64,000 nucleotides of DNA from Okamejei kenojei (Eukaryota): assembly GCA_035221665.1 (NCBI GenBank), contig CM069165.1, positions 19,220,001 to 19,284,000 on the forward strand, written 5' to 3'. Shown one piece after another: positions 34,300-64,000 of the stretch (positions are counted from its first letter, which is position 1; every line of letters starts with the position of its first letter). The notes under the pieces are model-generated. The model made no database searches, was not told the origin of the DNA, and was given only the letters and a program-made list of their open reading frames with translations. A program made the translations under genes and the position numbers.

Positions 34300-34561
34300 A
34301 GGAAGGAACTGCAGTTGCTGGTTTAAACCAAAGAGAGACACAAAAAGTTGGAGTAACTCAGCGGGACAGGCAGCATCTCTGGAGAGAAGGAATGGGTGTT
34401 GTGTATTGGATCGAGACACTTCTTCAAGGATCTTTAACTTTTGAACCAATGCACTTTTAAATTTCTTCAAGAAGGGTCTCAACCCGAAACGTCACCCATT
34501 CCTTCTCTCCAGAGATGTTGCCTGTCCCGCTGATTTACTCCAGCTTTTTGTTTATATCTTC
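34300..34561. mobile_element. palindromic Penelope-like remnant with 13-bp TSD
   Basis: TSD tctttaaatctct at 34287-34299 and 34562-34574; inverted arms with a ~40-bp unrelated spacer. Confidence 0.85.
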
Positions 34562-38130: not shown

Positions 38131-40119
38131 TAACTCAGAACATCAGGCACCATCTCTGCTGAACATGGATAGGTGGCAGATTGGGACTGTTCTGAATAGT
38201 ATACGAATGGCTTGTCCACTTGGTTTAAATATCTGCAATACTAAATAGCTAATTAATAACAGGTAGGATTATCCCAAACATTTCATATCCTGATGCTTCC
38301 AACAGAATATTTTCACACTGGAGCAGATTAATATTCTACTCAACAGTTGGGAAATGTCGCATTTTGTTTTCAGGATAGTTAAGGATTTGTTGACTGGTTA
38401 TTTTGGCCAGTTCCCTCTGGGCACGTAATCCTCCCCATCAGATTTTACTCTGCGTCTACTCATCTGAAGCTTGATGCACAGAAGGCAACTGTGAAAATGC
38501 AGCTCAGTGTGGTGAAAACAATGCAAAATTCGTCGTGTGCAACAAAAAATTCAAATGCTGGAGTAACTCAGCGGGCCAGGCTGGAGGGGAATGGAAAAAC
38601 AATGTTTCGGGTCGGGACTCTTCTCCTTTGCAAAAAAAAAATATGACCGTACACTTTCACCAATAGCTAAATTCTACATTAGTGTGGCGGACGGGGTGGA
38701 GGAAACTAAACACATCCCATTAGATTGGCTATCCTGCCTAACTTCTTTTCTTTTCATTGGCTTCCATTTTTACACCTAGTCCCCCATTAATGGGGGTTTG
38801 GGGAGGAGGAGAGGGGAGGGGAGTTTAAATTACCCAACATATCTGACCAGGAACCAAAATCACAGTCAGAAACTTAATTTACAGTAGAAACACAAAAAAG
38901 AGATAGAAATGGACACCCACACATAGAGAATCCCTAACACTGACAACATGCTAAACTTTCTCAGCCTGCCTCCGACCACAAGTATTCAAAACCTTACACA
39001 TGAAACAATCAACTCATCCAGAAACATATGATCCCAAACACATGTCCAAACCATTATACATAACCCAACCAAGCCCACTACATATAAAATATCAAAGGCC
39101 GCCAGTCGATATAGACATCTATATACAAAATATCAGTGGCTCATATGTATTCCAGTCCTTCCTCTGCGCACTGATTACTTTAGTATTTCATTCTCTACCA
39201 CCAAACCATGTGAGTTTCAGATATAACTCTTTCAATGTTTCACGACTGGAGTACTAAGAAAAATCTGAATTTGATGAAAGTTTGGATGAAGTGCATTAAC
39301 TCGGTTTTTTCCTCCACAAGTTCTGCCTGACTTGCCGAGTGTTTCCATTGTTTCAGGTTTTTGGCATCTGCAGTTTGTTTTTTGCTTCAGGAAAGCCTAC
39401 ATTCTGATTGATAGAACAACATAAGCCTGATCTGTGGCTTAAATCTAATGAGACGCAGCATATTCAAGTTCTACAGGCACTGTTTAAAGAACTGGTCTCA
39501 ATCAGTTTTGTGTCCAACCATTCCAACATTGGAATAATTCGTAACTAAAAGCAGTCCAGATGAAATAGGTATATGGGCCAGAGACTGAAGAAATGCCTGA
39601 TGAAGGTCCACTTTACAAAAAGTTACCTGTCCATTTTTTCCTCAGATGCTGCCTGGCCCACTAAGTTCCTCCAGCACTTTGTGTTCTGCTCAAGAATGCA
39701 GATCAGTTGGTCCATGGTCATGTGTTAAACACCTTAGCTACATGAATCACCACTTTCTAACATCACGGCTGAAGAATTAGTAACCTTGTTCAATAAGACA
39801 AGGTGGTCAAACACTTTGGTGGATTATAATTGCTCAGATAACTACCAAGACCTGTTGTTGCAATCAGAAGCAGTCATGGAAAATTCCAGAATACCCATGA
39901 TGTAAAATTGCAAGAAAAATACAGCTAAAACAAATAGCAGATGTTTGTTCTGTTTTTAAAATATAAGAGAAAGACTTCCTTAACAAAACAGCAAGTACAT
40001 TCCTAATAAAGTGATCAACAGCCTTTAACATATTGCAATGTAAACAGCATACATCTGATGCCATTAATATTCATATTAATAGATTAGTTAATGCTGAATA
40101 GTGAAACGCAATAGAATGC

Positions 40120-40280
40120 AGCAAAAGTCAAAATGCTGAAGGAATGCAATGGTTTAGGCAATATCTCTGGAGGGAATGTATTTCAGACGGAAGAAGGGTC
40201 CCAACCCAAAATGTCTTCTGTCCATTCCCTCCAAAGATGCTGCCTGGTCAATTGAGTTCCGCCAGCACTTTGTTTTTTGT
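40120..40280. mobile_element. palindromic Penelope-like remnant
   Basis: aaaatgctgaaggaa...tctggagggaatg / cattccctccaaaga...gagttccgccagcacttt around gaagaagggtcccaacccaaaatgtc. Confidence 0.7.
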
Positions 40281-40399
40281 TAATGTTGAATCGTGTTTAC
40301 CATGAAATAGCAATGTTCACAGTAAATGTGAAGCTTGGAGCAGGATTTCAGAAATAAAGGACATAATATGTTTAACAATACAAGGATAGTCACAGCAAC

Positions 40400-41785
40400 C
40401 CAAAAACAAAATGCTGGTGAGACTCAGCAGGTCAAGCAATACCTGGAAAGTGAAAGAAATGGTCAAGTTTGGGTCGAGACCCTGTATCAGATGAGGGAAG
40501 GTAACTGAGGGTGGGGGAGAGGGGGTGGTGGTGGGAAGGGGGTAGAAGGTCATAGGTGTTCCGAGTAGCGGTAGATGAAAGGGGTATGTGTGGAAACAGA
40601 AGAGGTGGAAGCAGATGAGGAAAACTGCAGATGGAGCCAGGAGGAAGGGTGGATGGAGGCAGGCGTGGAACTCGCTCTCAAAATATGGAGGGGATCGGGG
40701 GACGGGGGACACACAATTTTTTGGTGGCCGCTCGCGCATGTGCACACTCACACACACATGCGCGAGGCTTCGGAGGCTCAATCCAGCGCTAAATGCAGCT
40801 CAACTCTGCCTGTCTCGCCAGGTTAACTACAGCCCTGACTGGACTGACGGGACACCAGCGCTGCTTCTCTGCGCTGGCCATATTTCCCGCAAGCCCAGGC
40901 AGGTTCACCTGGCGGGACAGGCAGAGTGAGATGGGTTTAGTGCAGCTTCTCTGCGCTGGCTGTGGGCCTGGGGGTGCCGTGCCCGACTGACTCCCGACCT
41001 CTCTGGCCACCCATGGGAGGGGGTGGCACTAGGGTGGGGACGGGACAGCGCTGGAGACCCGTCCGGGATCGATCCAGGCTGTGGATCAGGCGCAGATCTG
41101 TGCCGCGTCTCCCTCCTCCAATCACCGCACTCTATCCTCAGTCCCACCACCTCCCCCCCACTCCAATCATTGCGCTGAATTATCATGGCCCACCCCCATT
41201 GCCTGCTGACCGACCTCTCTCTTGTCCAATTGGCACCCTCGAAAGCGGAGATTTTAAAATCCGGATGACAAAAACTGGGGGGGGGGGGGGGGGTGGATGT
41301 CCCCCACCTCTCAACACATGGGGGGCACTTGTCCCCTCTGCCCCCCCCCCCCCCCGGGTTTTCCGCCCCTGGGTGAAGGAGAGATAGAATCCGAGGGTAA
41401 TGAGCAGGGATAGACAGCTGGAATCTGAAGAGTAAGGAAGATGCTAATGGGAACCAATTAAGGGAGAGTTGGGGCAGATGGGCAGATGGAACCGGATGGG
41501 AGAGGGGATCGATGGGTGACGTGCAGGCAGCAGGTAGATGGAGCCGGAGGGAGAGGGAGATGAAAATGGATACCGTGGGACTGGGTGTGGGGTATGAGCA
41601 AGAGAACAAAAATAGGAGGACAGAGGGAGAGAGGTATGGGAAGACAGGGGGTAATGGTTCCCCGAAATTGGAAAAGTCAACGTTCATACTGTTTGGTTGT
41701 AGAAATCCCACCTTGGCAGTGGAGAAAGCTGAGGATGGGAGGTTGAAGTGGGAATGTGAAGGCAGGTTGAAATGACATGCAACCT
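40400..41785 (-). mobile_element. Penelope-like 3' end and long terminal repeat, split by a DNA transposon
   Basis: GFLQPNSMNVDFSNF ORF end at ~41660-41710, pyrimidine-rich repeat on the minus strand, ctgatacagggtctcgacccaaac hammerhead remnant near 40465-40490. Confidence 0.8.
40660..41371. mobile_element. GC-rich non-autonomous DNA transposon, hAT-like
   Basis: Ends CAGGCGTGGAA and (rc) CAGGGGCGGAA; 8-bp flanks gatggagg / ggtgaagg (6/8); subterminal ggggac motifs; CpG-rich; interrupts the host repeat. Confidence 0.65.
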
Positions 41786-42349
41786 ATATTTTCGGATGGC
41801 TAAAGGTCAAGGCATTTTACGCATTTTCACAACGTACATATTTTCCAAGATCAGCAAATGCATTTAGTGACATTGATGGTAACTCAATCATCAGATTGCA
41901 GGTTTTGCAATAATTACTGGTTAGCACCTGAACAAACAGGAAATAGAAGTCTTAAACTTTAATTCATATTTGCAATTTAACCAGTGAAAATTAAATCTGC
42001 AGTATAAAGATGTAGAGATGTTCGACTTGATCGTGGGGTCTGTCTTTGCCTTGAGACGCCTGATGCATGAAATGACCTGAAGGCAACAATGCTGAATGCC
42101 TTTTCAAAGCAATTGAAGCCAGCAATATATAAACATGTTATGGAAGCATATGAAAGATATGAGAAAAATCTGTCTGTCTGTCTATCTGCCTGCACTTTTC
42201 CTATGTGAGGACTCTTTAAATTCTTGCATGCATTAATCTATTACCATTTAAGCAAAATTCTGCTTTTATATTCTTGTTACAAAAGTGGATTATACCATAT
42301 CTGGAAGGGATCCGGTACCAGAAAAAGAAGGATGATGGAACCAGACAGA

Positions 42350-43867: not shown

Positions 43868-45782
43868 GTCATAGAGTCATAGAGTGATACAGCCCTTCAG
43901 CCCAACTTGCCCACACCGGCCAACAGTGTTCCAATACACTAGTCCCACCTGCCTGCTCTTGGTCCCTATCCCTCCAAACCTGTCCTATCCATGTATCTGT
44001 CTAATTGTTTCTTAAACAGTGGGATAGTTCCAGCCTCAACTACCACCTCTGGTAGCTTGTTCCATACACCCACCACCCTTTGTGTGAAGAAGTTACCCTT
44101 CGGATTCCTATTAAATCTTTCCCCCTTCACCGATGTCCTCTGGTCATCGATTCCCCTACTCTGGGCAAGAGGCTCTGTGCATCTACCCGATCTATACCTC
44201 TCATGATTTTGTACACCTCTATAAGATATCCCCTCATCCTCCTGTGCTCCATGGAATAGAGACCCAGCCTACTCAACCTCTCCCTGTAGCTCACACCCTC
44301 TAGTCCTGGCAACATCCTCGTAAATCTTTTCTGAACCCTTTCAAGCTTGACAATATATTTCCTATAATATGGTGCCCAGAACTGAACACAATATTCTAAA
44401 TGCGGTCTCACCAATGTCTTATACAACTGCAACATGACCTCCCAACTTCTATACTCAATACTCTGACTCATGAAGGTCAATGTGCCAAAAGCCTTTTTGA
44501 CCACCTTATCCACCTGCGACTCGACCTTCAAGGAACCATGCATCTGTACTCCTAAATTCCTCTACCTTACAAGACTACCCAAAGGCCTACCATTTACTGC
44601 GTAGGACCTGCCCTTGTTCGACGTCCCAAGATGCAACACCTCACACTTCTCTGCATTAAATTCCATCAACCATTCCTACGCCCTCCTGGCCAATCGATCC
44701 AGACCCTGCTGCAATCTTTCACAACCATCTTCACTATCTGCGAAACCATTCAATTTTGTATCATCAACAAACTTGCTAATCCTGCCCTGTATGTTCTCAT
44801 CCAAATCATTGGTGTAGATGACAAACAGTAACGGGCCCAGCACTAAACCCTGAGGCACACCACTAGTCACAAGACTCCAGTCCGAGAAGTGACATTCCAC
44901 CATCACTCTTCCATGGAGCCAATTTGCTATCCGTTCAACTATCTCGCCTTGGATCCCATGCAATCTAACCTTCCAGAGCAGCCGACTATGCGGAACCTTG
45001 TTGAATGCCTTACTGAAATCCATGTACACAACATCTGCCCGCATTGACCTTTTTGGTCACATCTTCAAAAAAAATCAATCACATTTGTGAGACACGACCT
45101 CCCACATACATGCTGACTATCCCTAATCAGCCCTTGCCCATCCAAACGCCTGTATAACCTATCCCTCAGAATACTCTCCAGTAACTTACCAACTACAGAT
45201 GTTAAGCTCGCCAGTCTATAGTGCCCAGCATTTTCCCTGCAGCCATTCTTGAAAAGAGGCACAGCATTTGCCATCCTCCAGTCTTCCGGCACCTCTCCTG
45301 TATTTAAGGACGACTCGTAAATTTCAACCAGGGCCCCTGCAATTTCCTCTCTAGTTTCCCACAATGTCCTTGGATATATCTGATCAGGCCCTGGAGATTT
45401 ATCGACCTACCTTCATACACAACAGTACATTCAGTACTTCTTCAACGGTAACACTGACTGCTCTCAAGCCATTTCCATTGACTGCTCTAAGTTCCTCCAT
45501 CCTACTGTCTTTGTCCTTGGTAAATACAGAAGAGAAATACTCATTGAGGACCTTGCCCATCTCCCGTGGCTCCACACAGAGGTGACCGCTTTGATTCCTG
45601 AGAGGTCCCACTCTCTCTCTCTAATTACCCTTTTACCCACTATGTATTTATAAAATATTTTGGGATTGTCCTTAAGAGCTATCTCCTGGCTCCTTTTTGC
45701 CCTTCTGATCATATTTTTCAGTTTACTCCTTAGCTCCCGAAACTCCTCCAGAGATGCACTTGATCCCAGCTGCCTATACCTG
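43868..45782 (-). mobile_element. CR1 LINE ORF2 (RT) pseudogene, ~1.9 kb, 5'-truncated
   Basis: VPEDWRMANAVPLFK, YMDFSKAF, SGVPQGLVLGPLLF, KFVDDTK and LVRPHLEYCVQFW motifs; (ctctatga)n tail. Confidence 0.96.
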
Positions 45783-47019: not shown

Positions 47020-48400
47020 AAAAAAACAGACAGGTTATTCTCCAATCTTCTGAGGCTTTACCTGTGGCTAAAGAGGATACAATGCCCGAGCTAACTCAAG
47101 CTTGCCTTTCTCAATATGTTGAATAGATTCTATCAGAATCCCTGGATTTATCCACCTTAATGCTCGTCAAGAGATCCAATACGTCCTCCTTCTTAATATC
47201 AACATGCTAAAGAATATCAGTACATCCGTCTCTGTTACCACCATCATTCATGTTCTTCTCCTTGGTGAATAATAACACATTTTGCATCTCGTCCACTTCC
47301 TATGGCTCCAGACTTAAATTCCGTTAATTGTCCGTAAATGGACATACCCTTTTCCTCATTATACCCTCTTGTTTTTATATGTAAAATGCCTTGGGATTTG
47401 CCTTAATTCTACTTGCCAAGGACATTTCATGGCCCCTTTTAGCTCTCCTGGTTTCTTATTTGTTCTTTCCAGCTTCATTTATACTCCTCAAATGCATTGT
47501 CTGATTTCAGCATCCTACACCTCACATATGCTTCCTTTTTCTTTCTGACTAAACATTCAACATCTCCTGTCATCCAAGGTTCTTGAACCTTACCATTCCT
47601 ATCTTTCATCATCACAGGAACATGCTGGTCCTGAATTCTAACCAGCTGGTCTTTAAAAGACTCCCACATGTTAGATATGGATTTACCCAATAACAGATGT
47701 TTCCAATCTATCTCCCCGGTTACTGTTCTAATATTGTTGTAATTACCTCTCCCCATTTAGCACTTTCTCTCCCTCCTGTCTTATCTCATTCATAATTAAA
47801 ACTCACTTATGGTCACTGTTTCCAAAGTTTTCTCCCACTGAAACTCAGACCATCTGGCCAAGCACATTTTCCAACCCAAGGTCCAGTTTGGCCCCTATCT
47901 ACATACTGTTTCAAGAAGCCCTCTTAGATGCATGTAACACATTTGGCCCATCTTAGCCATTGGCTGTAATGAGTCCCACAGTCAATCTTGAGAAAATTAA
48001 GACCTCCCATTACAACATCTTTGTTGTTTTTACATCTTTCCATAGTCTGTCTACACATCTGTATCTCAGCTGGGTGGCCTATAATATAATCCCATCATAG
48101 TGATTGCATCTTTCCTTTTGCTGTGTTCAATCCATATTGCCTCCCAAGATGAGCCCTTGACAATGTCTTCTAAATATTCTTTCTGATCAATAGTACAGCC
48201 CCTACACCTCTTTTACACCCCTCACCACTTAAAAATTAAACTGTGGAACATTTGAGCTGTCAGCCTTGCCCTTTGCTCAACAGGTATCTGTGAAGGCCAC
48301 AACATAGTTGATCCATGTACTAATCCAGGCTCTAAGTTCAGCAACATTCCCCGTAATATTCCTTGAATTGACATAAAAACACTTCAGACTGTCAGTCCTA
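47020..48400 (-). mobile_element. older CR1 ORF2 fragment (endonuclease to linker)
   Basis: IDWKHLLLGKSISNMWESFKDQLVRIQDQHVP...EPWMT...LVRKKKEAY. Confidence 0.85.
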
Positions 48401-48436
48401 CCCTGCTCAATAAATAGCTAATATTTACTAGTCTGT

Positions 48437-48830
48437 TCTTAGCACTCACAAAATGCAACACCCCACATGTATCTGGATTAAACTGCCTCAGCCCATTTCA
48501 ACAACACATAAATATCATTCTGTAGCCTCACACTACCCTCCACACTGTCCACAACTCCACCATACCTTCCATAACTCCCCCAAGTCTGAAGAAGAGTCTC
48601 GACCTGAAACGTCACCCATTTCTTCTCTCCAGAGATGCTGTCCGTCCCGCTGAGTTACTCCAGCATTGTGTCTATCTTCCTCAATACTACCTCAGATTCT
48701 GCCATTCATGATGGATGTCCTAACATCCTTTGCATTCACAAAATGCAACAGCTCATATGTATCTGGATTCAACTGCCTCTGCCATTTCTCAGCCCACTTC
48801 AACAACACATCAACATCACCTTGTAGCCTG
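48437..48830. repeat. two diverged copies of a ~95-bp CR1-derived segment with a Penelope-like repeat between them
   Basis: tcacaaaatgcaaca...atgtatctggatt.aactgcctc...caacaacacat...tgtagcct at 48437-48527 and 48727-48830; hammerhead core at 48586-48613. Confidence 0.75.
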
Positions 48831-50106
48831 CAGGTAGGTGGCTGCTGGCAGCCTATTTACCACTGAAGCCTGAAGCTCTGTCATGCAGCACCAGACACGA
48901 CCTGCATGAGGAGAATCAGCTTGACCAGCGCTCTGCATCCAGCCTAGATAAGTCTAGGCAGCCGAGACCAAGGCGACAAGTCTAGGCAGCAGAACTCATC
49001 CTGCTCAATTATTCCCATTATGACTAACTTTATATTCCACATATCATTCCATAATCCAGGAAAGACAGGCCTATGCGGAAACTACATTAACACTTTAAAT
49101 GCATTTTTAGAGTAGCAATTTTTAAACCTTGCAAATTAAAATACATTGAAACGGAAGTAATTCAACAGGTTATTTCAATTTGAGAAAAGGACATTAGTAT
49201 TTGGCCAAGAGAAATGAAACAAAATGATAGCTTAATATTGAATTATATATGAATATTGTTAAGTGCGCTCCTTTATTCTGAAAATTGCAGCTCCTTCTGA
49301 TCTTTGCATCGACCAGGATATATGGTCGCATGTTGTTCATTAGCGATTGCCTGCTTGTTTATTTAGAAAACGAATCTGCGTGTGAAGACAAATATACTTC
49401 GAAGAAGCATGGAGAGGGAAATTTCTATAATGATGGTCATTAGGCAAAATTACAAGTGTGCATGCGAGGTTCAATAACTCTGCACTTACTGGGAAATGCG
49501 GTGGCAACCCTTCATCAAAAGCCGAACAGAAATAATCCATTATTTTGCAGTGTTCTCCCACTAGAAAGATTGCCAAACATGGACTCTCAGCCCAGCATCC
49601 TAGCCTTCAGATGTTCCCAGGGATACATAAGTAAGCCTAGTTACCTTCAAGCAGACACTTTAAATTTAGAACAAGGTCATGAACCGTGCTGGATAGGGCA
49701 GACAAGAGGCAAGTGAGACGACGCAATATGAGAAGCATGCACAGTTAGCACCAAACGAAGTGGGAATGACGTGCTGCTCCAATAAAGAGTGTACAGGACA
49801 GAATGGTGCCACAGGAGACTATTATAAACCGAGCATTGCAGCAATAGTTACAGCACAATATCACTTCAGATTTATTACCATGCTTTGAACTTTTTTCTGA
49901 GCCAACTGGGAACACCTTATTCTCTGCATTATTCGCCACGTCAAACCAGCAGTGCTAGGAAATGGATGTTTTCTTTGTCACTGAGACATACCTTGTAAAT
50001 CTAGTTATGGCACCACTTGGGTGCAATGCAATATTTCACACTGTTAAAACGTGTGCCTCTTTGCAGTCGTGTGGCAGTTTACATGCACACCTAATGGGAA
50101 TCCCAT

Positions 50107-50190
50107 TCTGAAGGGTCCTGACCCAAAACATCACCTATCCATGTTCTCCAGAGATGCTGCCTAACCCGCTGAGTTACTACAGCACTCTGT
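50107..50190 (+). mobile_element. Penelope-like terminal repeat fragment
   Basis: gaagggtcctgacccaaaacatcacctatccatgttctccagagatgctgcc. Confidence 0.75.
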
Positions 50191-50214
50191 TCCCATGGTG
50201 GATAATGGCTGGTT

Positions 50215-50636
50215 CATCACAGCCCCCCCCCCCATCAAAGAGAACTTTAGGAGGCGCTGCCTCAAAAAGGTTGACAGCATCATCAAGGACCCACAACACC
50301 CTGAAAATCAATTCACTCCTGTCATCGGGATGAAGGTATAGGAGTCTGAAAACGGTAACCGCCAGGTTCAGGAACAGCTTCTTCCCAACAACCATCAGAT
50401 TATTGAACACCACAACACCAACTAAACTTTGAGCTACAAACTGTCTTGGTTGCACTCGGGACTTTGGGTTTTTGTTTTGTTTTAGTTTTTATAACTGTTG
50501 AACTCTTCCTTTGCTCTTTTGTTATGTTATCTATAGAGTACCGTGTTTATGAATCTGTTGTGCTGCTGCAAGTAAGAATTTCAAGGTTCTGTTTCTGGTG
50601 CATATGACAATTAAACACTCTTGACTCTTTTGATTC
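50215..50636 (+). mobile_element. Rex1/Babar-like LINE 3' end
   Basis: RCLKK..SIIKDP.HP...LLSSG.RYRSLKT.TARFRNSFFPTTIRLLN followed by the 3' UTR and cttgact tail. Confidence 0.85.
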
Positions 50637-51509
50637 TTCATAAACCCATGTAAGTTCACCTCTCTATGTCCTTCGGTCCATAGAAAACTGTCCAGCCTAT
50701 CCAACTTCACCTTATAGCTCAAGTCCTCGAGTTCAGGCAATATTCCTGTAAATCTTTTCTGCTTCCCCTCGATCACGGACACGTAATATTAAATGGCTGA
50801 GTGGCAAGTGTAAGTGCAGATGAATTCAGGTGTTAGGGAGCATTCATGGTGCTGAAATGTGTACTACCGTTGGCCTGAGATATGCACATTCAAAGAGGTT
50901 GCACTGCAAACATTAATATGGATGTCTCAGGTTTGAATATGCTGTCCAAAATACATGAATGTTCAATTAGAATTTGGGTTCCAAAGTTGCTTCTTAAGCA
51001 AAGTTTTTAAAGTAAATTTTAATTGACTTCAGCACATGGACCTCATCTCTGCATGGACCTCAGTGCTCCAAATAAATACTAATTGCCAATTTGGGCTTTA
51101 GCTCTTCATCATTGCAAATTAATTGGAATGTGTATATTTATTTTCAGTAACAATAATTAGGCAATTGGACCAACAATTCAAAAGACAAGAGTTGAATTCA
51201 TCCATGATAATTTGTCATACTAGACAGATTTGTTAAGAATTAGTCAGAGGCTAGGGCAAAGCAGATAAAAACTACTAGATTGTTATAAAACTCCAACTGA
51301 TTAATTGATTACAAGCGGGAAAATGGGCATCATCACTATCTAATCTGTTCAATACATGACTCCATGTCTACACTGTAAACTCTTGAAGCTTTTACTTCAG
51401 CAACCCTGCCAAATATGGAAGGAAAATAAATGTGTCCTTGTTGATGTTCCATGGCCAATATTCTGAGAAATCTGTTCAATACACCAGCCACGGAGTTTTA
51501 GACCCTGTA

Positions 51510-51665
51510 AGTTTTTCAACTGCACTTACCTGCGCGCCCGTACCTACCGCTGTCAAGGAGCTGCCTCTGCAGCTCATGCTCTGCCGTCAGCGTTGACGTA
51601 ATGCCGTTCAAGCGCCAGGCGGGGCTTCTTCACGTAGTCACTCACGTGACTCCGAAGTAAAATTG
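51510..51665. mobile_element. CpG-rich repeat fragment, possibly a DIRS-like terminal repeat
   Basis: cttcacgtagtcactcacgtgactccgaagtaaa recalls DIRS-type termini; from memory, unverified. Confidence 0.35.
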
Positions 51666-51789
51666 TAATATAGTTTGTAATCATTTATGCCTTAGGCTGT
51701 GGCACAAATATTAAAATACTAAACTGCAGTTGGTTTTAACCAATTACTTTCAATGCAATTATTTGTGAAACTCAAGTTCTGTGCAGTTA

Positions 51790-52082
51790 CGTAGAACAGT
51801 ATAGTATAGGAACAACCCTTCAGCCCACAATGTCTGTGCCGAACACAATGTTAAGTTAAACTAATCTCCTCTCTGCAAGTGATTCTTGCATATGCATGTA
51901 GTGGCTATCTAAAAGCCTCTTAAATGTCACTATCATATCTGCTTCTACCACCACCCCTGGCAGCATGTTCTAGGCACATGCCACTGTTTAAAAATCTTGA
52001 CCCTGTACATTTTCTTTAAACTTTAGCGCACTCACTTTTAAGCTATGCCCTCTAGTATTTGACATTTCTGCCCTGGGAATAA
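51790..52082 (-). mobile_element. CR1 3' end
   Basis: ggaacaacccttcagcccacaatgtctgtgccgaac...accaccacccctggcagcatgttctaggca. Confidence 0.85.
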
Positions 52083-52209
52083 AGTCCTAAATGGCTAAAT
52101 AAAATATTGGATAATTTTATAAGCTCTCTGGATGCTGAGTGCAAGAGAGTGATCCATTAAAAAAAATTGTACATCCTGTTTCGCACAATTGTAAGGTGGG
52201 TTTGTTAAT

Positions 52210-52448
52210 AAAAAGGAAAGTACAAGGTATGTGGAAGTTTGTGCTGGCAGAATCAGGAAACTTAAAAAAAAGTCTGAAGAAGGGTCTTGCCCCGAAATGT
52301 CACCTATTCCTTCTCTCCAGAGATGCGGCCTGTTCCGCTGAGTAACTCCACCTTTTTGTGTCGATCTTCAGTTTAAACCAGCACCTGCAGTTCCTTCTTA
52401 CACAAACTTTAAAAAGGTACCTGGATGTGCATTGGAAGTGCCATGATG
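52210..52448 (+). repeat. left copy of ~238-bp direct repeat flanking the L1
   Basis: aaaaaggaaagtacaagg...ggaagtgccatgatg; about 10 differences from 54840-55076 by manual comparison. Confidence 0.95.
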
Positions 52449-54844
52449 CCATGAGAGATTTTTGCAATATTATAAAAAATTATATTCCGCAAAAACGACA
52501 GAAAACAGGATAGGAATAGAAGCATTTAAAAAAAAATGTAATTTAAATGGGATGGATTCACAAAATAGAGAATCACTAAATGCTGAAATATCAGTAAAAG
52601 AAACCGAAGAATCTATCACATCATTAAAAAATGGTAAAACACCGGGATCTGATGGTATTGGTTCGGAATTTCATAAAACATTTTATGATCTGATTGCACC
52701 ACGTTTGAAGATACTCTATGAATACATCTTTACCCACCAGAAACTACCAGAAACGTTAAATTAATCTATTATAACACTTGTACCTAAAATAGACAAAGAT
52801 CTGGATGACCCAGGATCATATAGAGCTATAGGTCTTTTAAATACTGATCAAAAGATACTAACCAAAATATTAGCACAAAGACTAAGCACAGTTATTAATC
52901 AATTAATTCACCCGGATCAAACAGGATTTATACCAAAACGATATTCCTCATATAACCTGAGACGATTATTCAATATTATATATTCGAAAAAGAGGTATTA
53001 ATAAAGACCTAGTAATTATATTGTTAGATGCAGAGAAAGCCTTTGACCAGGTGGAATGGTCTTACTTGTTTTCGGTTATGGAAACTTTTAAGTTGGGAGT
53101 GAAGTTTATTACTTGGGTTAAATTATTATACACAAATCCAACAGCCAGAATACTAACAAATCAAATGCTATCAACTAAATTTAATTTATTCCGAGGCTGC
53201 AGACAAGGTTGTCCTTTATCCCCGCTATTGTTTGCACTTGCAATAGAACCATTAGCTCAACGTGTGAGATTACATCCTGAAATATATGGGAATGACACCA
53301 GAGATACTGAAAATAAAATCTCCTTATATGCGGATGATGTATTACTTTATATTACAAAGCCGGAAATTAGTATTCCAAATTTACTGAAATTAATAACTGA
53401 ATTTGGATTATTTTCAGGATATAGTATTAATTGGAATAAAAGTGAACATGTCAATAATGGTAAATAACTTACATATACTACAACAATTTCCTTTTAAGAT
53501 AGCAAACGAAAAAAATCAAATATCTTGGAATTTATGTAACAAAAAGATTTGATTCTTTATTTAAATCCAATTTTCCACTTTTATTGAATAAATTAAATAA
53601 GAATATTTTATATTGGAAAACATTACCTATTTCAATGCTAGGTAGAATGAAAGCAATAAAAATGATTTTTCTCCCGCAATTACTATTAATTCCAAAAACT
53701 ATGGAATTAATAAGATGGGCGATCTCTATAGGGAAAACTCCTTCATGTCATTTCAAGAATTAAAACAAATTTATGGATTACATTCAAAAGATTACTTTAA
53801 ATATTTACAAATTAGAGACTATGTAAAAGCAAACACACAAGAAATCAGAAATAGAAAGACAGAAATTTTAGATGAATGTCTAAATAAACACCCGAACAAA
53901 GAAAAATTGATATCATATATTTATAACTTTTTATTGGAAAACGATGTTCCAATGACAGAAATATATAGGCAATCATGGGAAAACGAATTAGGTCAATTAA
54001 TCAGACTAGAAGTATGGGATGAAAGTTTACAACATATACACCATTGTTCATTAAATGTTAGACACTCTCTTATACAATTTAAAATATTACATAGATTACA
54101 TTATTCAAAATCCAAATTACATAGTAGTTTTTCAAATGTATCTGCCATATGTGATAAATGTCAGCACTTAGAAGCTAACTTAACGCATTCATTTACAAAT
54201 TGTATAAATATTACTAAATTTTGGACAGAAATATTTAAGATAATTTCAAATGTTGTTAATATGAATCTGATCCCAGACTCAAAATTAATAATATTGCGAA
54301 TATTAGAAACAGATCAACTAATAACAACGAATCAAAGCATTTTTATTGATTACAGTTTAATAATTGGGAAAAAATTAATATTGAAATTCTGGAAAGGTCC
54401 TACATCCCCCACAACCAAAATGTGGATTACAGGAATGTCGGAGACACTTCATCTGGAAAGATTAAGGCGTGTCCTACTGGATAAGTTGGATCTTTTCAGA
54501 GGGTTATGGTCTCCATTTATTGAATATTTAAAGGGTCAAAATGGCTCGGTGCGAGAGCCTGACTGAAGCCTGAATAAAGGAATGGATGAAGAATCATATA
54601 TAACAAATCATGGATATATCTCCAATGATGGATAACCTGTTTAACACTCCACTCATTTTTTATTTTATTTTATTTTTTTTAACTTTATTTTTCTCTATTT
54701 TTTCCTATCTGCAATTTTTTTTTAAATGTATAGAAATACAAATAAGACATAATTGTTAATATTAATAATATTACGAATGTATGAGACAAGTATATTATTT
54801 TAATATGTACTTACATCTAATAAAAGTATTTAACAAAAAAAAAA
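52449..54844 (+). mobile_element. L1-clade LINE, 5'-truncated ORF2 pseudogene with 3' UTR and poly(A)
   Basis: KTPGSDG, LDAEKAFD, GCRQGCPLSPLLF, LYADD, C-terminal CDKC...H....C knuckle; AATAAA at 54819-54824; A-tail 54835-54844. Confidence 0.95.
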
Positions 54845-55076
54845 GGAAAGTACAAGGTATGTGGAAGTTTGTGCTGGCAGAATCAGGAAACTTTAAAAAA
54901 GTCTGAAGAAGGGTCTCGCCCCAAAATGTCACCTATTCCTTCTCTCCAGAGATGCGGCCTGTCCCGCTGAGTAACTCCAGCTTTTTGTGTCGATCTTCGG
55001 TTTAAACCAGCATCTGCAGTTCCTTCTTACACAAACTTTAAAAGGTACCCGGATGTGCATTGGAAGTGCCATGATG
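54840..55076 (+). repeat. right copy of ~238-bp direct repeat flanking the L1
   Basis: Begins inside the L1 A-tail and matches 52210-52448. Confidence 0.95.
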
Positions 55077-55244
55077 TACAGGGCTATCGACCAAAAGATA
55101 GGCAATTAGATTAATCCAATTACATTTTTTGGACATCAACGCGATGGACCAAATGCCCTTGTGTCTGTGCTTTAAATTGCGAATGTAGATGTCAGATAAA
55201 ACATTACTCCTATATTAAAGTTTAAGGACATGATTTCCCATCAG

Positions 55245-55680
55245 TCTAAAAGATGCCGGCCCCAAATATCATCTGTCCATTTCTCTCCACAGATGCTGCC
55301 TGAGCTGCTGAGTTCCTTTGGCACTTTGTTTTTGCTCAAGATTCCAGTACTCCTGCTACCTTCAGGTAGATGGTACCCTAGAGTCTATTAAAGACTGCAA
55401 CGACCAGGTTCAGGAATAGCTACTTCCCCACAGCCATCAGGCTATTAAACCTGGCTCGGACAAAACTCTGATAACTAATAACCCATTATCTGTTATTTGC
55501 ACTTTATTAGTTTATTTATTCATGTGCGTATATATTTATATATGGTATATGGACACACTGATCTGTTTTGTAGTAAATGCCTTCTATGTTCTGTGTGCTG
55601 ATGCAAAGCAAGAATTTCATTGTCCTATCAGGGACACATGACAATAAACTCACTTGAACTTGAGTATCTGCAGTCTCTCG
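55245..55680 (+). mobile_element. Penelope-like repeat interrupted by a Rex1/Babar-like 3' end (about 55348-55663)
   Basis: gctcaagattccagta|...TTRFRNSYFPTAIRLLN...caataaactcacttgaacttga|gtatctgcagt. Confidence 0.8.
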
Positions 55681-57089
55681 TGTCTCCCTTTTCTTAAGTG
55701 TTGCTTTGGGGTAAAGACATATAGTGAGTAGGATATTGAAAATCCATTTACAGGTCATTGGTGCTAAAATTCCTTAATTCCAGAGAAGGCAACAGCAGTC
55801 ACAGTGGCTGTTTCGGGGCAGAAAGCACTTCAGGCCTTGTGCCTCCCCAGAATGAATCAGGTGTGGTACAGATGCCCATGTTGAAGAATTACTGTGCACT
55901 AGTATCTAGGACAGACAATGAGGATTATTTGAATGGGGTGTGTGTGAAGGAAGGTTTTGGTAAGGAAAGGTTGGATAAAGTAGAGTGGTAGTTGTGTAAG
56001 AGATAGATGGAGGTGGGAGAGTTGGAAGAAGTGATCGGGTCAGGAAGAATATAGATTTTGGGAGTGGGAGGTGAGAAGTCAGTTTGTCACAGGCGGGGTT
56101 TCATTTTATCTTCCACCTCACAGGAGGATATGTGGTGCCAGGGAAGCATCCACTCTGGTGGTGACACAGAGTATCTGGGCAACCTGCCGACTGATGAACC
56201 AGGTTTCGGCTTCCATGGAGACACGGTCTGAGACCATTCAAAGTCTTCATGCCAGATGGGTCCAGCCATCTGTTCTCAGGTAATAGCTAGTTACCATTTA
56301 ATGCTCACAAGAACCCCTCCACCACCAAGGAGAAGGCAGCTGTTCTGTAATGTTTATTTGTGTAAGCAAGGCTCTGCGGCCTATTTTGACATTTATGTGA
56401 CGGACCACAACAGCTTGACACCCTGGTGGAACTGTTTTCCAAAAGCAGCAACTAATGCAGGCCAATTGCTGAGTTTAAATCTAGGATGTTACGGAAGATG
56501 GGGAAAAAGTGTACACATAGCGTTAGATCACACGATTGAATAGTGGAACAGACTCAGAGGAGTTAAATGATCTTCTGCGATGAGAGGGAAGACCAAGAAC
56601 TCCAGTTAACTTTTCAACCATCCTGAAATTTTGACCGAGATGATTGGAGGTTTGTGCACTCAAGGAATCAAAACAAAAAACAAATTGGGCAGGAAGGTGG
56701 GAGGATCATCCATGATATCAAATAGTGGATCAAGACTAAGAGACCTGACCTACCCTGGTTCCATTTCACACAATCTTGTGCTTCATTCAAGAGACAACAC
56801 ACCCAACAATTATGTGGCGTGCACTTCCTCTGTACTGTCCTGAACTGCCATCTTAAATGGTGGGCTACGTTTTCTGTGCCATGGATTAATTTCCAAGCCC
56901 TCTGTCCTTTAGGACAGAGCAACTTCCATGTTGTGGCTGACCCATCACAACACAATGTCAGTGCAACCAGATGAGTAAACATTTTGCAAAAAATCCAGAA
57001 GCAAATTTTGATTTTCTTGAAAATAATTAATATAGCTGTAATGTCTTAGTTATGAAGCTGAAAAAAACTAAACATCTCAAGAACTCTAT

Positions 57090-57300
57090 TCTTTTTTGTA
57101 GCAGCATTACAGGTCTGTAAACAGTAATCATTGATTCCATAATAAACAAAAAAAGTTCGATAAATTAATATTAAAGGGAAAATAGTCCAAGCTTCTTAGT
57201 GCAACCAAAGCATTTCGTAGTTCATAGCGAAGTTGGTGTCCGTAGTGTTCAAGAGCCTGATGATTGTTGGGAAGAAGCTGTTCTTAAACCTAGAGATCTA
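57090..57300 (-). mobile_element. Rex1/Babar-like 3' fragment
   Basis: cctgatgattgttgggaagaagctgttcttaaacct is the reverse complement of RFKNSFFPTIIR. Confidence 0.75.
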
Positions 57301-57444
57301 ATCCTAACAATAGCAAAAACATACACAGTATCAGATTCAACTACTTTGCTCCAATCACTAATGTCTTTTTTTCAGTTTTAGTTTTCTTTTGACTTAATGG
57401 GATTTTGGGACGATGGTTTAAATCTATTCTTGAGCCCCAAAGTA

Positions 57445-57588
57445 AAATAGATTTGGACAGGTACATGGATAGGAAAGGTTTGGGCCAAAAGCAGGCAGAT
57501 GGAACTACTGATGATGGGGCATCTTGCTCGGCATGGGCAAGTAGGGCCGAAGGGCCTGTTTCCCTGCTGTATGACGAAATGACTCTAT
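57445..57588 (+). mobile_element. CR1 3' tail
   Basis: atttggacaggtacatggataggaaagg...gggccgaagggcctgtttcc. Confidence 0.85.
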
Positions 57589-58913
57589 TTACAAACAGGA
57601 TATCATTCGGTTTCTACAAAACTCTTGATTAACTATGCTCATCTATTCCTGCCCAGCAACCCTTCAGACCTGTAATACTGATCACTTCAAAAACAAAATA
57701 CCAAAAACTAAGAAGTAGTATAAAGTTTCTACCAGATCCTGATGGCAAGCATTTGTAAAGCAATCTCTGGCAAACACGAACTGATATCGAACATGCCTGT
57801 TCCAGACGTGCTTTATACACTGGAGCTTCTTCAGTGTGTGAACTCTCACCTAATTTGTCTCAATTCATCTTGGCCTTGCTGGAAATCTACAGTATTCCCG
57901 AAACAATCAGAATAACGTATGTTTGTTTTAACCTGGTGACAAAGCACACACTTTCCTTTCACAAGATGTGCAAGTTCACATTCCTTGTGTGAAAAGTACC
58001 CCCTGCCACCAGAGATATTTAAGCTTGTAGATCAGCCTAGTTCAAATGCATACTGCCTCCAGTGAAACATGCATTTGCTATGATCAGCTTAACAAAAATA
58101 ACTTTTCAACATTGCTGTGACCCTCATTCTGTGGCTTTGTTGCAACACGAGGCCAAGTGTCCCTAATGTGTTCTCACATCACATGAAAAGGAAACGTTTG
58201 ACAGGCGTCAAAGTATCCAGGCACTCGACCAACGAATGGTGAAAAGAGTCAAAAATCCCGCCGAGATCAATGCAAAGTTATGCTGAAAGTACAGTTAAGG
58301 TTTAAAACAAACTCAAAACTTAAACTGAATTGGTTCATATCAAGTAACATTTCAGTTTCCTTTTATTGACTAAGCTTCAACAGCTTTTTTTAAAGTTTCC
58401 TTTTCAGCCTGTCTTTAATCGATGTGTACAAGTAATAACAACTCAGAATGTTAAACTGAATTTTGTGCTCTCCCCCTCTTCCCCACTTGAAATAGGCCAT
58501 GATTGCTTCTGGCCCCTGCAAATATGAAGAAACCATATGTGTTTAGCCAGACAGAGCAATATGCAACAATAGTCACTCATGGAAGATTACTGGGGAAGGT
58601 CTGAAGTTCTGTTCAAAATGCAATTTAAATGGTTACAGTAAATTATTTTTGCGAGTGGAAGGGCAACCATAATCGTACAGGATAAACTGTGGCCTAATGA
58701 TACGTAGAAGATCCAATGTGAGACCTTTTATAACTTCCTGAGCAGTCAGTTTACTGCTTTTTGCAAAAGATTACACTTCTGACAAAATAGAACTTCTGTA
58801 CTGGGAAGAAGTATTATTCTTAATTGTGATGACAAATCTCCCTCGATTCATTCAATTGTCCACCATAACTTCACAAGGGAGGCCAAGTGAACCCAGGCTA
58901 AAGATAATCTAAA

Positions 58914-59158
58914 GTAGGAAGGAACTGCAGATGCTGGTTCACGCTGAATTTAGACACAAAAAGCTGGAGTAACTCAATGTCAGGCAGTATCTCTGGAGAA
59001 AAGGAATAGGTGACGTTTCGTGTCAGAACCCTCCACCCTTAGGAGTCCCTCACCCCTAGCTCTCAGTCTGATGAAGGTTTCGACCTGAAATGTCACTTAT
59101 TCCTTTTCTCTGGAGATGCTGCCTGACCCGTTGTATTGCTCCAGTATTTTGTGTCTAC
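58914..59158. mobile_element. palindromic Penelope-like remnant with a canonical CTGATGA hammerhead core
   Basis: Inverted arms; imperfect TSD ctaaagataatctaa / ctaaaggcaatctaa; CTGATGA-AGGT-TTCG-ACCT-GAAA-TGTC at 59068-59094. Confidence 0.85.
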
Positions 59159-59811
59159 CTAAAGGCAATCTAATAAAGCTCCTTCGGGTTGGATTCTTGC
59201 AAAACAACCAAAATTAAATTGTTTATTTTTAACACAATCACAAAACCACACTTCTAGATTTCTGAGCTTAACATTTACACCTAATGTGCTGTTTTTCAAA
59301 ACAGAAAGATTTTCAAAGTACCATTGATATGTAAAATAAGAAATTGATACACATAGGCAATATAACTAAAACTACTGCTACTGTCGAAGAGATATTGCAG
59401 GTGCTGTCAGCATGCAATCCATTTTATTTTATTTATTGACTGGTTTTCACAGTCTTCCCTCACAGAATATAGAACACTTATAAACCACCCTAGGGACATA
59501 CATATCCCTGGGGGGCAAAAGACTACTGGGAACATTAGGATGCAAGGGTGTGTGAGAAAAGGCATTACCCTAATTTAAAGTGGAACATATACAGTTTGCA
59601 GTTCCCCATAATGTGCTGATGGCTATCAATTGTTGAAGGCATCCTCTCAATGGCAGCTCAATGCTTTAAATATATGAAAGAGACCAAGGCTCAAGGGACA
59701 GGGAACTTGCAAACTGGAGTGCCCTGGATTTAGTGGATGAGACATGGAGGTTCAAGGAGCGCTCCTGTGTGTCAGTGAGATAGAGGTGAGGGAAGTGATG
59801 GCGGGGACACT

Positions 59812-60070
59812 TAGGTTAGTTTAGTTTATTACTGTCACGTCTACTGAAGTACAGTGAAATGCTTTTGTTAGCGTGCTATCCAATCAAAGACTATACAGGA
59901 ATGCAATTGAGCCATCCAGAGCATACAGATAAAGGGTACAAGATTTAGTGGGAGATAAAATCTGATTAAAGGTAATTCAAAAGGTCTACAATGAGATAGA
60001 TGGAAGGTCCAGACCGTGGCAGAAGCTTGGCAGTAAATACCTCCAGCTGTTGCCATCTGTGAGAACTTGC
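59812..60070 (-). mobile_element. LINE 3' UTR fragment (Rex1/Babar-like)
   Basis: (ttagt)n then tttattactgtcacgtctactgaagtacagtgaaatgcttttg, the reverse complement of a tgacagtaataaa-type tail. Confidence 0.55.
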
Positions 60071-60077
60071 ACTCATG

Positions 60078-60345
60078 ACCAGAGACCAGGGTGTGATCCT
60101 GACAACAGGTGCTGTCTGCATGGAGCTTGTACATTCTTCCTGTGACCACATGGTTTTCTCCGGGTGCTCTGGTTTCCTCCCACACTCCAAAGTCATACAG
60201 GTTTGTAGGTGAATTTTCTTCTGTAAGTCGTAAATTGTGCCTAATATGTGGGATGATGCTAGTGTACGGGGTGATTGCTGGTCAACGCAGACTGAATGGC
60301 CTGTTTAAATGCTGTATCTCTAATGTCTAAATTAAAGTCTAAATT
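60078..60345 (+). mobile_element. HE1-type SINE lacking its 5' head
   Basis: ccagagacc...ggtgctgtctg...ggttttctccgggtgctctggtttcctcccacactccaaa...ctgaatggcctgttt. Confidence 0.85.
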
Positions 60346-62099
60346 CATTTTCTTGTCCTCACAAAGTCTGTCAGAATAAGCGGCTGAGCACTGGGGAAAA
60401 ATGTAGCAGATCATTTAATTAATTGAATCAGGGATTCTTTACTTGTGGTATTGTAATCAGTGTAGGTGGTCCTGCAAGGGAGGATATGAGTAATTATATG
60501 TCATCTGGGATCTCTAGGCCAATTACTGGAAACTACGTTGGTGTTAAGAGAATCATTTCATCTGCACTGGGGATTTGGTTTAGCAGTTTTCCAGAGGGGA
60601 AAAGTATCTTTCAGGTAGTTCATTTTTGCCCCTGCAGTCACTGCCTCCCATCTCTGCTCTGCTAGAATATAACAATGTGGTGTTTTGCGGGGATCACCCA
60701 TTGCTGTTCTTCTTCGATCTCCCATTCTTCAGCCTGTGTCTTCTGTTCCTCAGGCTCTGGTGTCTCCCAGTTGCTCCTCCGTCAGCAGTGGCTGCTGTCT
60801 TTGATTGGGTTGGCAACATAGAAGTCCTTGCCAGATTGGTAGACTCTGCAGTGCACCCCTAGATTTGTGTAAACAATGGAATCTCATCTATAGAAGCCCA
60901 ATGGCATTCTTTGTAGTAACAGCAACAGCACGGATTTGCTGTTTCTGTCCTCAGCTGCTGTAGTTGCAGCCACCATGATGGTGGAGAACAGCTCTTGCCC
61001 CTTGGTATCTAACCCGTTGGTGGGGGAGGGTCACAGAGAACCTCTGTCTGCCTGAGGCCACCCTCATTGTGGGTGCTTCTCAAAAATACTATGTGAAATA
61101 ATTTTTCTGCCCCACTTGCACATAAATCCCGATGTCCAATTATCTAATTTCTGGACCAATATTCTTCAGCTGTATTAATATTGCTTCTGACAATTTTTAG
61201 GCTGCACTCTTAAAGAATAAGGGAAACAGATGGATTTTGTTGCTGGTTGGAAAGGGCTTTTTATTTAAAATAAGATCAAGAGCCACCAAAATTATAAATG
61301 CTACAAACAGTTATAATCATCATTAATCTTCTTTTGGTTTGTCTATTTCTCTTTAATCAACGTATACAGTAGCTGCTGAGACTCAGTAGAAAAGAATAGA
61401 GTTTACATGTGCTGGGTTTGTACCACTGTCTCTATATTTTAATCCCTTCTCAGACATCCCTTCCCCAACCACTAAGTGCGTGCAGGAATTGAAGCTCTGG
61501 CATTTTTGGAGAAGCATGCTGTACACACATATTGTACGCATGCACATACCTTTACCATTCCTAATAGCCACGGAGGGTCCTATTGAAGCATTGGCATGCT
61601 CACATTCAATATAATTCACCTGGCACCCCTCTCTGATCCTCTTGTGGTTTGCACTTTCGAGAGTCACGACAAAAAGAGGGTTATAAGTTAACGTCATAAC
61701 AATCTTACCAAGTCAAAGCTCAACAATCCTACAGACTGAAAACTTATTTTTAAATCTTCCAATGGAGAAAAGTAAAATGATGTGATTCCTCTATCTTCAG
61801 AGACTGGTGGTCTTTGAAAAATAAACGGGAGGAAAGGGGAAAGGAATAACATTGGAATTATGTGGGTTTTAGGTATACTGATAATAAACTCAGAAAGGAG
61901 TAATTTCAACAAAGGAGTGAGTGGTGTTAGAGTAAATATTATCTTTCATATATCTTGACATACATCATAACGCAGAGAACAAAAAGTACTCTGTAACTCC
62001 ATATTAGGCCATCAACTGCATTTTGATGCCTACCCTTTGAAATAAAACTGTGTTCCTCACACAGGGTATAAGAAGATTGACGAGACTGGCTTCGACATA

Positions 62100-62305
62100 T
62101 GGGAAAGAACTGCAGATGCTGGTTTAAATCAAGATAGACACAAAATGCCGGAGTAACTCAGCTGGACAGGCAGCATCTCTCGAGAGTAGGAATGGGTGAC
62201 GTCTGAAGAAGGGTCTCGACCTGAAACCTATTTCACCTTGTCACCCATTCTCACTCTCCAGAGATGCTGCCTGAGCAACTGAGTTACTCCGGCATTTTGT
62301 GTCTG
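62100..62305. mobile_element. palindromic Penelope-like remnant
   Basis: agacacaaaatgccggagtaactcag ... ctgagttactccggcattttgtgtct arms flank one hammerhead core. Confidence 0.85.
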
Positions 62306-62887
62306 ACTTCTATGTGAACAGGGCCAAGAGGAAACTGGAGGGAGGAAAAATGTGCCTGCACTAATTAGGAGTGGATTGAAGCTAAAAAAGGAAGAGAATG
62401 TATAGTGAAGGGTTGGTGATTGGTGAGGCTGAGGGAAGTGAGGGGAGAAAAATTAGCCAGCGTGATTTGGAGAGAAAGATGGCCAACTTTAACTGTTGTG
62501 TCTACCTTCACTTCCATCTCAAACAACTTTAACTGAAGGCAGGGCAAGTGCCATACACTGTGCCATGGAGAAAAAGTAATGAGTAAAAATGAAGCATAGA
62601 TGAGGGAAACAGAATGTCATTTATGACAAGCAGCACGAGATAGGAGTGCTCTGAAATAAATGAGACGCATATGTGTTTTACCATTACAGCATAAACTATT
62701 TAATACTGTCATGGTGAAACACATAGATTGACTAAAATTAAATTTTCCTTGCAAGGAATTAATAAACGATTCAATGCAGCTTTAAGCACTATGCTTACAT
62801 TACAGTTGCAGCATATCTACAGTTAAAGTTAATAGAATTCAGCTTGCCATGTATTCCTTCTTATGTAACAACAACAGTGCACACACA

Positions 62888-63022
62888 GTGTGTAGGAAAG
62901 AACTGCAGATGCTGGTTTAAATTGAAGGTAGACACAAAATGCTGGAGTAACTCAATGGGACAGGCAGCATCTCTGGAGAGAAGGAATGGGTGACTTTTCG
63001 GGTCGAGACCCTTCTTTAGACA
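62888..63022 (-). mobile_element. Penelope-like terminal repeat fragment
   Basis: tgtaggaaagaactgcagatgctgg...gggtcgagacccttctttagac. Confidence 0.85.
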
Positions 63023-63124
63023 TTCTTTGTATCCAGTGTCTTTAATCTTGTAAAATGTCTGAAAGTGTTTTACGGAAGACTGAGACACATAAAAGAGATG
63101 CATTTGGAGACCTTGATCACAAGG

Positions 63125-63490
63125 TTAGGATTTGAGAAGCATCTTAAAGGAGGAAAAAGTGGAGGAAGGCTTGGAGAGGTTTAGGCAGAGAATTCCAGAG
63201 CTTAAGGCAATGGCAGCTGAAAGCAACTTTAATAGAATGATTAAATTAAGGAGGATCATCAGACCAGGTGGAGCACAAGTGTGCTGGAGGGTTGTGGGGC
63301 TGGAGGAGATTACAGAGGGGAAGGGATTTATCAATGGTGGAATTTGAAAGCTTTAACGTTAGTGTTAGATGTTTACTGAACGAAGAACAAATGTAGGTCA
63401 TTCAAGGGTGGCGAGATGGGTGATTGGGAGTTAAGAAAGGGCACCAAGGGTTTTCAGTCCAGCCTGTTTGTAGCCGCTTTGGAATCATTG
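63125..63490 (-). mobile_element. L2-like LINE 3' fragment
   Basis: Minus strand ttcagctgccattgccttaagctctggaattctctgcctaaacctctc...ctcctttaagatgcttc. Confidence 0.7.
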
Positions 63491-63798
63491 GTCATTGTGG
63501 AGGGAATTTAGTGTTGATAAACCAAATTTGTTAAATAGTTAACACTCATTGTCAATTTACAGAGAATGACCAGTAATAATGTGATCAATAGATAAGCTCC
63601 AGAATTCTCCTTAGATGATGCTTCCAAAATCAACATTCATTAGTTAAATATAATTATTCAAAAACTTTGGATGTGGCGAAATAAATTAAATAAGATCTCC
63701 TCGTAACCATGTTTTTTATTCAAATACGAATTCTTCATGATATGTTTGTTTACCTTTTATTGTCACTTAGAAGGCAACCACTAAAATTATGGTGTATT

Positions 63799-64000
63799 GG
63801 GTGGCACGGTGGCATAATGGTAGAGCTACTGCCTTACAGCGTCAGAGACCCGGGTTCGATCCCGACTACCGATGCTTTTCTGTACGGAGTTTGCATGTTC
63901 TCCCCATGACCTGCATGGGTTTTCTCTGAGATCTTCGGTTTCCTCCCACACTCCACAGATGTACAGGTTTGTAGGTTAATTGGCTTGGTGAAAAATGTAA
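63799..64000 (+). mobile_element. HE1-type tRNA SINE (runs off the window)
   Basis: Box A tggcataatgg, box B ggttcgatccc, V-domain ggtttcctcccacactcc. Confidence 0.92.

Follow-up and report, generated by a model that had tools for sequence, protein, structure and literature searches.

We analysed a 64,000-nucleotide stretch of Okamejei kenojei DNA (the window), in which a 5'-truncated LINE remnant, assigned below to the L1 clade, lies between two direct copies of a stretch of 237-239 bp (Table 1). The two copies are separated by 2391 bp, which is the L1 itself. End-to-end alignment of the left with the right copy gave 8 substitutions and 2 one-base gaps, in line with the roughly 10 differences reported in the earlier note, and blastn within the window gave 95.8% identity over 239 columns (E 6e-108). 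One of the 8 substitutions and both gaps fall in A runs; CpG transitions account for four of the seven remaining substitutions (52288, 52294, 52370 and 52422). The right copy begins within the run of ten A that closes the L1, the last five A being common to both, and the repeat adjoins both ends of the L1, with no more than 2 extra bases on the 5' side. The earlier note had the repeats abutting the L1 exactly; both ends do abut, but the match to the L1 probably starts at 52451 and not at 52449. At 237-239 bp, the duplication is longer than the usual target-site duplication (TSD) of about 5-30 bp and belongs to the published rare class of TSDs above 100 bp.

Table 1. Features of the L1 insertion and its flanking duplication, in window coordinates.
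Feature	Position	Strand	Length	Basis and remarks
L1 endonuclease-type site T/AAAAA (bottom strand TTTTT/AT)	52209..52214	+		Sequence; putative first nick at 52209/52210
Left copy of the duplication	52210..52448	+	239 bp	Pairwise alignment, blastn
Older high-copy interspersed repeat in the left copy	52265..52404	+	140 bp	22 other window matches; aligned with 16
5' junction, perfect 8-bp tandem echo TGCCATGA x2	52439..52454	+		Sequence
5'-truncated dead L1-clade ORF2, about residue 408 of 1275 (human numbering) to stop	52451..54566	+		RVT_1 and ORF2p matches
L1 3' UTR and poly(A) remnant	54567..54839	+		AATAAA at 54819-54824; A10 at 54835-54844
Right copy of the duplication	54840..55076	+	237 bp	Alignment, blastn; embedded repeat at 54894-55033

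The identity of the element was read from its coding remnant. Two Pfam RVT_1 matches were obtained in the L1 (E 5.8e-26 and 7.4e-09), and human L1 ORF2p was the best PDB match for three pieces of it, at residues 412-506, 588-739 and 1009-1249. The reverse transcriptase piece matched human L1 ORF2p with E 5.6e-32 versus 1.7e-07 for R2, and 53691-54563 matched residues 1009-1249, cysteine motif included, with E 0.0015. On these matches the element is placed among the LINEs of the L1 clade, the clade being taken in the broad sense (L1 or Tx1 subgroup). Its frame ends with the stop at 54566, and an AATAAA signal precedes the A run, only five A of which lie outside the repeat. The 5' truncation would have removed ORF1 and the N-terminal APE endonuclease. 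The copy is dead: an internal stop and three frameshifts break its frame, and about 445-475 bp are missing near 53690, between the reverse transcriptase thumb and the late ORF2 region (53685-53700). The size of this deletion was determined manually by comparing the spacing with that of four loci that are distant relatives (L001, L002, L008 and L009). An apparent 12-bp in-frame loss relative to P0001, the closest relative found, adjoins this deletion, and contigs of the family are one base shorter at 52986/7 and at 53509.

No second copy of the L1 was found in the window by blastn or tblastn. P0001 was the one match (83% over the query) that the protein search returned from 47 candidates. None of 14 candidates in viral contigs and none of 55 in prokaryote genomes was confirmed as a relative, and 18 of 112 candidates in metagenome contigs were relatives, all distant (25-58% protein identity) and informative only for an Asn codon at the 5' junction and for the deletion size. 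Contigs were aligned from 4 of 24 runs: X1 (organism A), X8 (organism B), X15 (organism D) and X17 (organism E). The summed depth of the L1 family reached 1e5-1.7e6 in X1 and X8, versus 12-25 for single-copy DNA, and at 92% likeness the values in X15 and X17 were lower by a factor of about ten or more. Since family depth is higher in X1 and X8 than in X15 and X17, this suggests either a burst or a closer L1 subfamily in the A/B lineage.

The duplicated stretch holds a common repeat between ends of its own. All of its other blastn matches, 22 in the 64 kb, lie within its positions 56-195, and its first 55 and last 44 bases gave no other blastn match in the window. The embedded repeats of the left and right copies are identical at 133 of 140 positions, compared with at best 89/100 and 91/100 against any of the 16 other window copies, out of 22, that were taken into the alignment. 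Moreover, four substitutions are common to both copies and absent from all 10-16 other copies covering those columns. Because of these unique ends and shared private substitutions, the comparison shows that one genomic copy was duplicated, not that the repeat was inserted twice independently, as the earlier note had likewise maintained; the embedded 140-bp repeat was passively duplicated along with its flanks. Scored against the majority letter, 5 private changes fall in the left and 1 in the right copy, plus one at the edge of an A run. The substitutions thus split 6 left to 1 right (the CpG change at 52422 being counted left), a skew that is not significant (P = 0.125). Reverse-transcription errors, considered as a source of this skew, were rejected, the error rates of reverse transcription being too low to account for it and the skew itself not being significant.

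Both junctions bear hallmarks of L1 insertion. The left copy is preceded by a T at 52209 and opens with five A from 52210, which bears out the start at T/AAAAA described previously. TAAAA occurs at 168 of 64,000 plus-strand positions (0.26%), a chance figure that is generous here, the A run at the repeat start being partly defined by the poly(A) tail. The L1 endonuclease consensus is given as TT/AAAA (PMC2912911), and the form one T short of it, as here, is common in the insertion tables of PMC5223499. At the 5' junction, the two units of the echo occupy 52439-52446 and 52447-52454; such an 8-bp echo is found at 70 of 63,800 window positions (0.11%). Where the window reads HERF, P0001 reads DINERF, with Asn in place of His, and Asn is likewise present in 6 of the 8 distant loci that align at this junction. 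From these Asn codons, the L1 match probably starts at 52451, the bases 52449-52450 were probably copied from the flank, and ATGA at 52451-52454 is probably a 4-nt microhomology with the L1. It is also possible that the L1 runs from 52449 with a single substitution, the Ile codon being ATC in 2 of 8 distant relatives. By analogy, the junction probably matches the annealing-type LINE join with flank-derived bases: the joins described in PMC4245944 share with it the 5' truncation, short flank-derived extra bases and microhomology, but have typical TSDs of about 15 bp (L1) or 5 bp (ZfL2-1), versus 238 bp here.

The number of copies in other organisms was assessed from the aligned contigs, whose depth is not copy number, whose differences are in part uncounted and in which gaps in cover prove nothing. 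The comparison extended over 52405-56900, a range that holds both junctions and one full copy and within which the joint of an empty site could not show. In the flank, 6 of 1264 letters differed from the window in A (0.5%), 32 of 1263 in B (2.5%), 43 of 1137 in D and 34 of 1021 in E. One position was informative, 54875, which lies within the unique first part of the repeat. There X8 gave one contig with a depth of 12.7 versus 11.7 in the flank (1.09x); it carries a different letter at this position, has 36 letters to the end of the aligned piece (a meaning of the distance that other rows bear out), and starts at 54840 if its near end is its left end. At the same position X1 had a depth of 87, versus 21-25 for single-copy contigs (3.4-4.1x), and an X1 contig covers 55009-55293 of the right copy and its flank with one letter different from the window. 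We simulated the contigs expected at 54875 for seven structures. Two copies as in the window gave 4x and two copies with a variant in one gave 2x from 54845, while 1x from 54840 arose, of the seven, only under a one-copy empty site. Organism A therefore fits two copies and organism B one; the fit of B comes from a single row in one run (about 90% of that run was read), and no contig bridges the site.

Several further points bear on how these depths are read. A depth equal to two copies in X1 is not in itself evidence that the L1 lies between the copies, and the tables of joints and loose ends were swamped by repeats, so that the L1 junctions are not directly visible in the contigs. Contigs running over the ends of the stretch (2, 2, 1 and 1) could not be assigned to an end and were left out, and X15 and X17, with no contig at 54875 or 55065, are uninformative for D and E. 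If B carried the L1, an additional change in one of the copies together with an overlooked contig would give the same picture as the empty site. Recombination between the repeats at a later time may also have left B with one copy, a collapse that is conceivable because the copies diverge about as much as the window does from B. The earlier note would have given up its reading had the empty site already held two copies or had the 238 bp been part of the L1. As far as the contigs reach, B, though indirectly, fits one copy, and the repeat is host DNA: its depths of 87 (X1) and 12.7 (X8) at 54875 stand against at least 1e5 in the L1 bins of the same runs, and 1e5-8e5 in those of X1. Within the flank, the runs of A, D and E carry 11 letters at 55776-55779 that are absent from the window, which points to a recent small deletion in the window.

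The divergence between the copies allows the event to be placed among the lineage splits. Seven substitutions in 237 bp agree with the distance to B (6.0 expected; P of 7 or more = 0.39) and not with the distance to A (1.1 expected; P = 0.0002). Because the copy divergence fits the distance to B and not that to A, the event is placed by sequence comparison near the separation from B and clearly earlier than that from A. Of the 27 differences from B in the rows shown, 14 are shared with D and so originated on the window side, which gives about 1.2% over the rows shown; the divergence of about 1.5% per repeat copy is near this value. The L1 shows no clear sign of greater age than the duplication: of the 73 places listed for X1, no more than 66 can fall within the 2391 bp of the L1 (at most 2.8%, a figure that includes places common to other repeats and leaves some uncounted).

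Taken together, we consider it very probable that a long target-site duplication was made during one L1 insertion. This reading, already put forward in the earlier note, is supported by the exact ends, the single-copy origin, the T/AAAAA start, the echo and probable microhomology at the 5' junction, the coherent age, the published L1 duplications of similar size and, indirectly, the one-copy fit of B. Judging from the hallmarks, ORF2p would first have nicked the bottom strand at 52209/52210 and reverse transcription would have proceeded from the poly(A) tail. The next step is visible in the anatomy, the copy stopping in ORF2 near residue 408. The top-strand 3' end that finished the insertion would then have lain downstream of the nick by about 238 bp rather than about 15, may have slipped back 8 nt on itself and gained ATGA, and with this ATGA end may have paired with the end of the cDNA and primed the second strand. 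Fill-in would have left the 238 bp on both sides of the L1, and the copies would afterwards have decayed separately, from about the time of the lineage split from organism B.

As to the origin of the distal 3' end, for which the earlier note named second-strand cleavage or strand invasion, the sequence fits a distant nick and a replication- or repair-derived end alike. We lean mildly to an end made by the host in replication or repair, whether a nascent strand, a product of break-induced replication or an unrelated nick to which unwinding extended, because PMC4245944 puts the second cut of L1 itself near 15 bp; that ORF2p made the second cut is a real, if less favoured, possibility. We think it doubtful that this high-copy L1 family, or the host germline, regularly makes duplications of a few hundred bases. 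Lagging-strand fragments measure about 200-250 bp; were such duplications regular and their lengths clustered near 200-250 bp, the family would be a natural record of L1 finishing by a replication-derived 3' end. It is just as doubtful, being part of the same proposal, that such duplications have escaped notice because many TSD surveys, PMC2912911 among them, go no further than about 30 bp.

The strongest of the other explanations, though in itself unlikely, is a later rearrangement, in which an L1 allele with a short TSD was present, the empty homologue broke at the end of the 238 bp, and repair switched via ATGA into the L1. The anatomy would be the same and the duplication younger than the insertion. 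Exact ends, microhomology and templated echo are equally well accounted for, and copies derived from two haplotypes would differ from the start, which fits the seven substitutions and the 6:1 skew. Such a history requires a second rare event at a still heterozygous L1, however, and the L1 does not look older (at most 2.8% versus about 1.5% per repeat copy), nor is the skew significant.

It is less likely still that a 238-bp tandem duplication came first and that the L1 later inserted exactly into its junction with little or no TSD. A tandem junction would also offer the run of five A, and 5'-truncated LINEs commonly have blunt joins or very short TSDs (PMC2912911; PMC2666801). Yet both tandem models predict 2x or 4x at 54875; since the depth of B is 1.09x, the tandem must on this view have formed and received the L1 soon after the split from B, and the T/AAAAA at the start of the unit in the left flank would be left unaccounted for. 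We regard as very improbable an assembly artefact in which an L1-bearing and an empty haplotype were stitched together so that the 238 bp appear twice. Neither a read nor a contig was found to span both copies, but the copies differ by 4.2%, versus 0.5% between the window and X1 in the flank, four of the seven substitutions are CpG transitions, as in real decay, and X1, a different haplotype (over 1264 bp it departs from the window by 6 letters and 11 gap letters), fits two copies as well, so that the earlier objection to an artefact from the divergence of the copies is strengthened. That the embedded repeat inserted twice independently, or that the 238 bp are a terminal repeat of the element itself, can practically be set aside: 140 of the 238 bp are a very common repeat, but the ends of 55 and 44 bp show the depth of a single locus in two runs and have no other window match, and the private substitutions are shared by both copies. 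A 3' transduction was rejected, with no poly(A) after the right copy and no L1 before the left.

Duplications of this length have precedents. According to Servant et al. (PMC5223499), TSDs above 100 bp make up at most 10% of L1 events in HeLa cells and 57-91% in repair-deficient lines, and duplications of 217, 242, 275 and 277 bp are tabulated in cultured cells; their source was proposed to be either a nick at a distance or DNA ends left by replication or repair. These human insertions resemble the present one in L1 clade, endonuclease-type site, poly(A) and a duplication of a few hundred bp, but they are engineered de novo events in cultured cells, whereas this locus is an old germline insertion with 3% divergence. 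The L1-associated tandem duplications of 1-10 kb "regarded as large TSDs", for which break-induced replication was proposed (bioRxiv 10.1101/2024.12.14.628481), are somatic, from cancer or induced cells, and 4 to 40 times longer. Among other LINE clades, Dualen-4b_cRei of Chlamydomonas has a median TSD of 900 bp, with more than half of Dualen insertions having TSDs above 50 bp, and rotifer R9 has one of 126 bp (PMC9977147). Like the present case, these come from whole organisms and are non-LTR insertions flanked by very long TSDs, but the long TSD is there a property of the family and here one copy is known. One of 25 ZfL2-2 insertions had a TSD of 1228 bp (PMC2666801). HERV-K (HML-2) germline sites with TSDs of 250 and 111 bp (PMC5488345) are natural germline insertions with a near-equal TSD, and there the empty site was sequenced; HERV-K, unlike L1, is an integrase-based LTR element that does not use TPRT.

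Long TSDs were once ascribed to peculiarities of HeLa cells, and the survey in PMC2912911 was confined to TSDs of 5-30 bp, longer ones in vivo being called uncharacterised there. The excerpted part of PMC13141329 gives no count of long TSDs, and among the literature titles searched, which left out most subscription papers, none concerned long L1 TSDs in cartilaginous fish. The locus is thus a real, old and natural case of a known rare class and involves no new mechanism. Second-strand completion by L1 is still unsettled, and long TSDs have so far come mostly from cultured or tumour cells. Long TSDs are expected to be lost by recombination (PMC5223499); this locus indicates that a long L1 TSD passes the vertebrate germline and lasts to 3% divergence without collapse. 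The L1 here also duplicated a neighbouring repeat, whereby repeat counts are inflated. No rate can be drawn from a single case; what it offers is a pointer to counting such events across a genome in which the L1 family is abundant.

Some minor observations concern the embedded repeat and the surroundings of the insertion. A search of 48000-64000 against Rfam at gathering level gave no match for the embedded repeat and one chance-level miRNA match, and its folding z was -0.4 to 0.5 (3 copies). The name Penelope for this repeat comes from the earlier note. An inverted arrangement and a hammerhead-like core are traits of Penelope-like ends; the 140-bp repeat may resemble hammerhead cores, a likeness to which Rfam and folding lent no support. 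The repeat often occurs in closely spaced inverted pairs (10493-10646, 34299-34569, 58914-59155 and 62102-62319). Two sequences of about 90-100 bp at 48438-48528 and 48728-48829, 77% identical and 290-300 bp apart, flank a copy of the 140-bp repeat at 48582-48679, possibly representing an older duplication around an insertion. Of the 69 open frames of at least 90 aa in the window, the 20 scanned against Pfam gave one reverse transcriptase match and no host gene, and a 292-codon open frame at 40905-41783 (-) had no Pfam match. An RVT_1 fragment at 44676-45053 (-; E 7.3e-14) had no tblastn match to the L1 pieces and is of another LINE family. The 44-48 kb stretch holding this second reverse transcriptase fragment is strongly skewed, and 40001-42000 is the sole 2-kb bin at 50% G+C.
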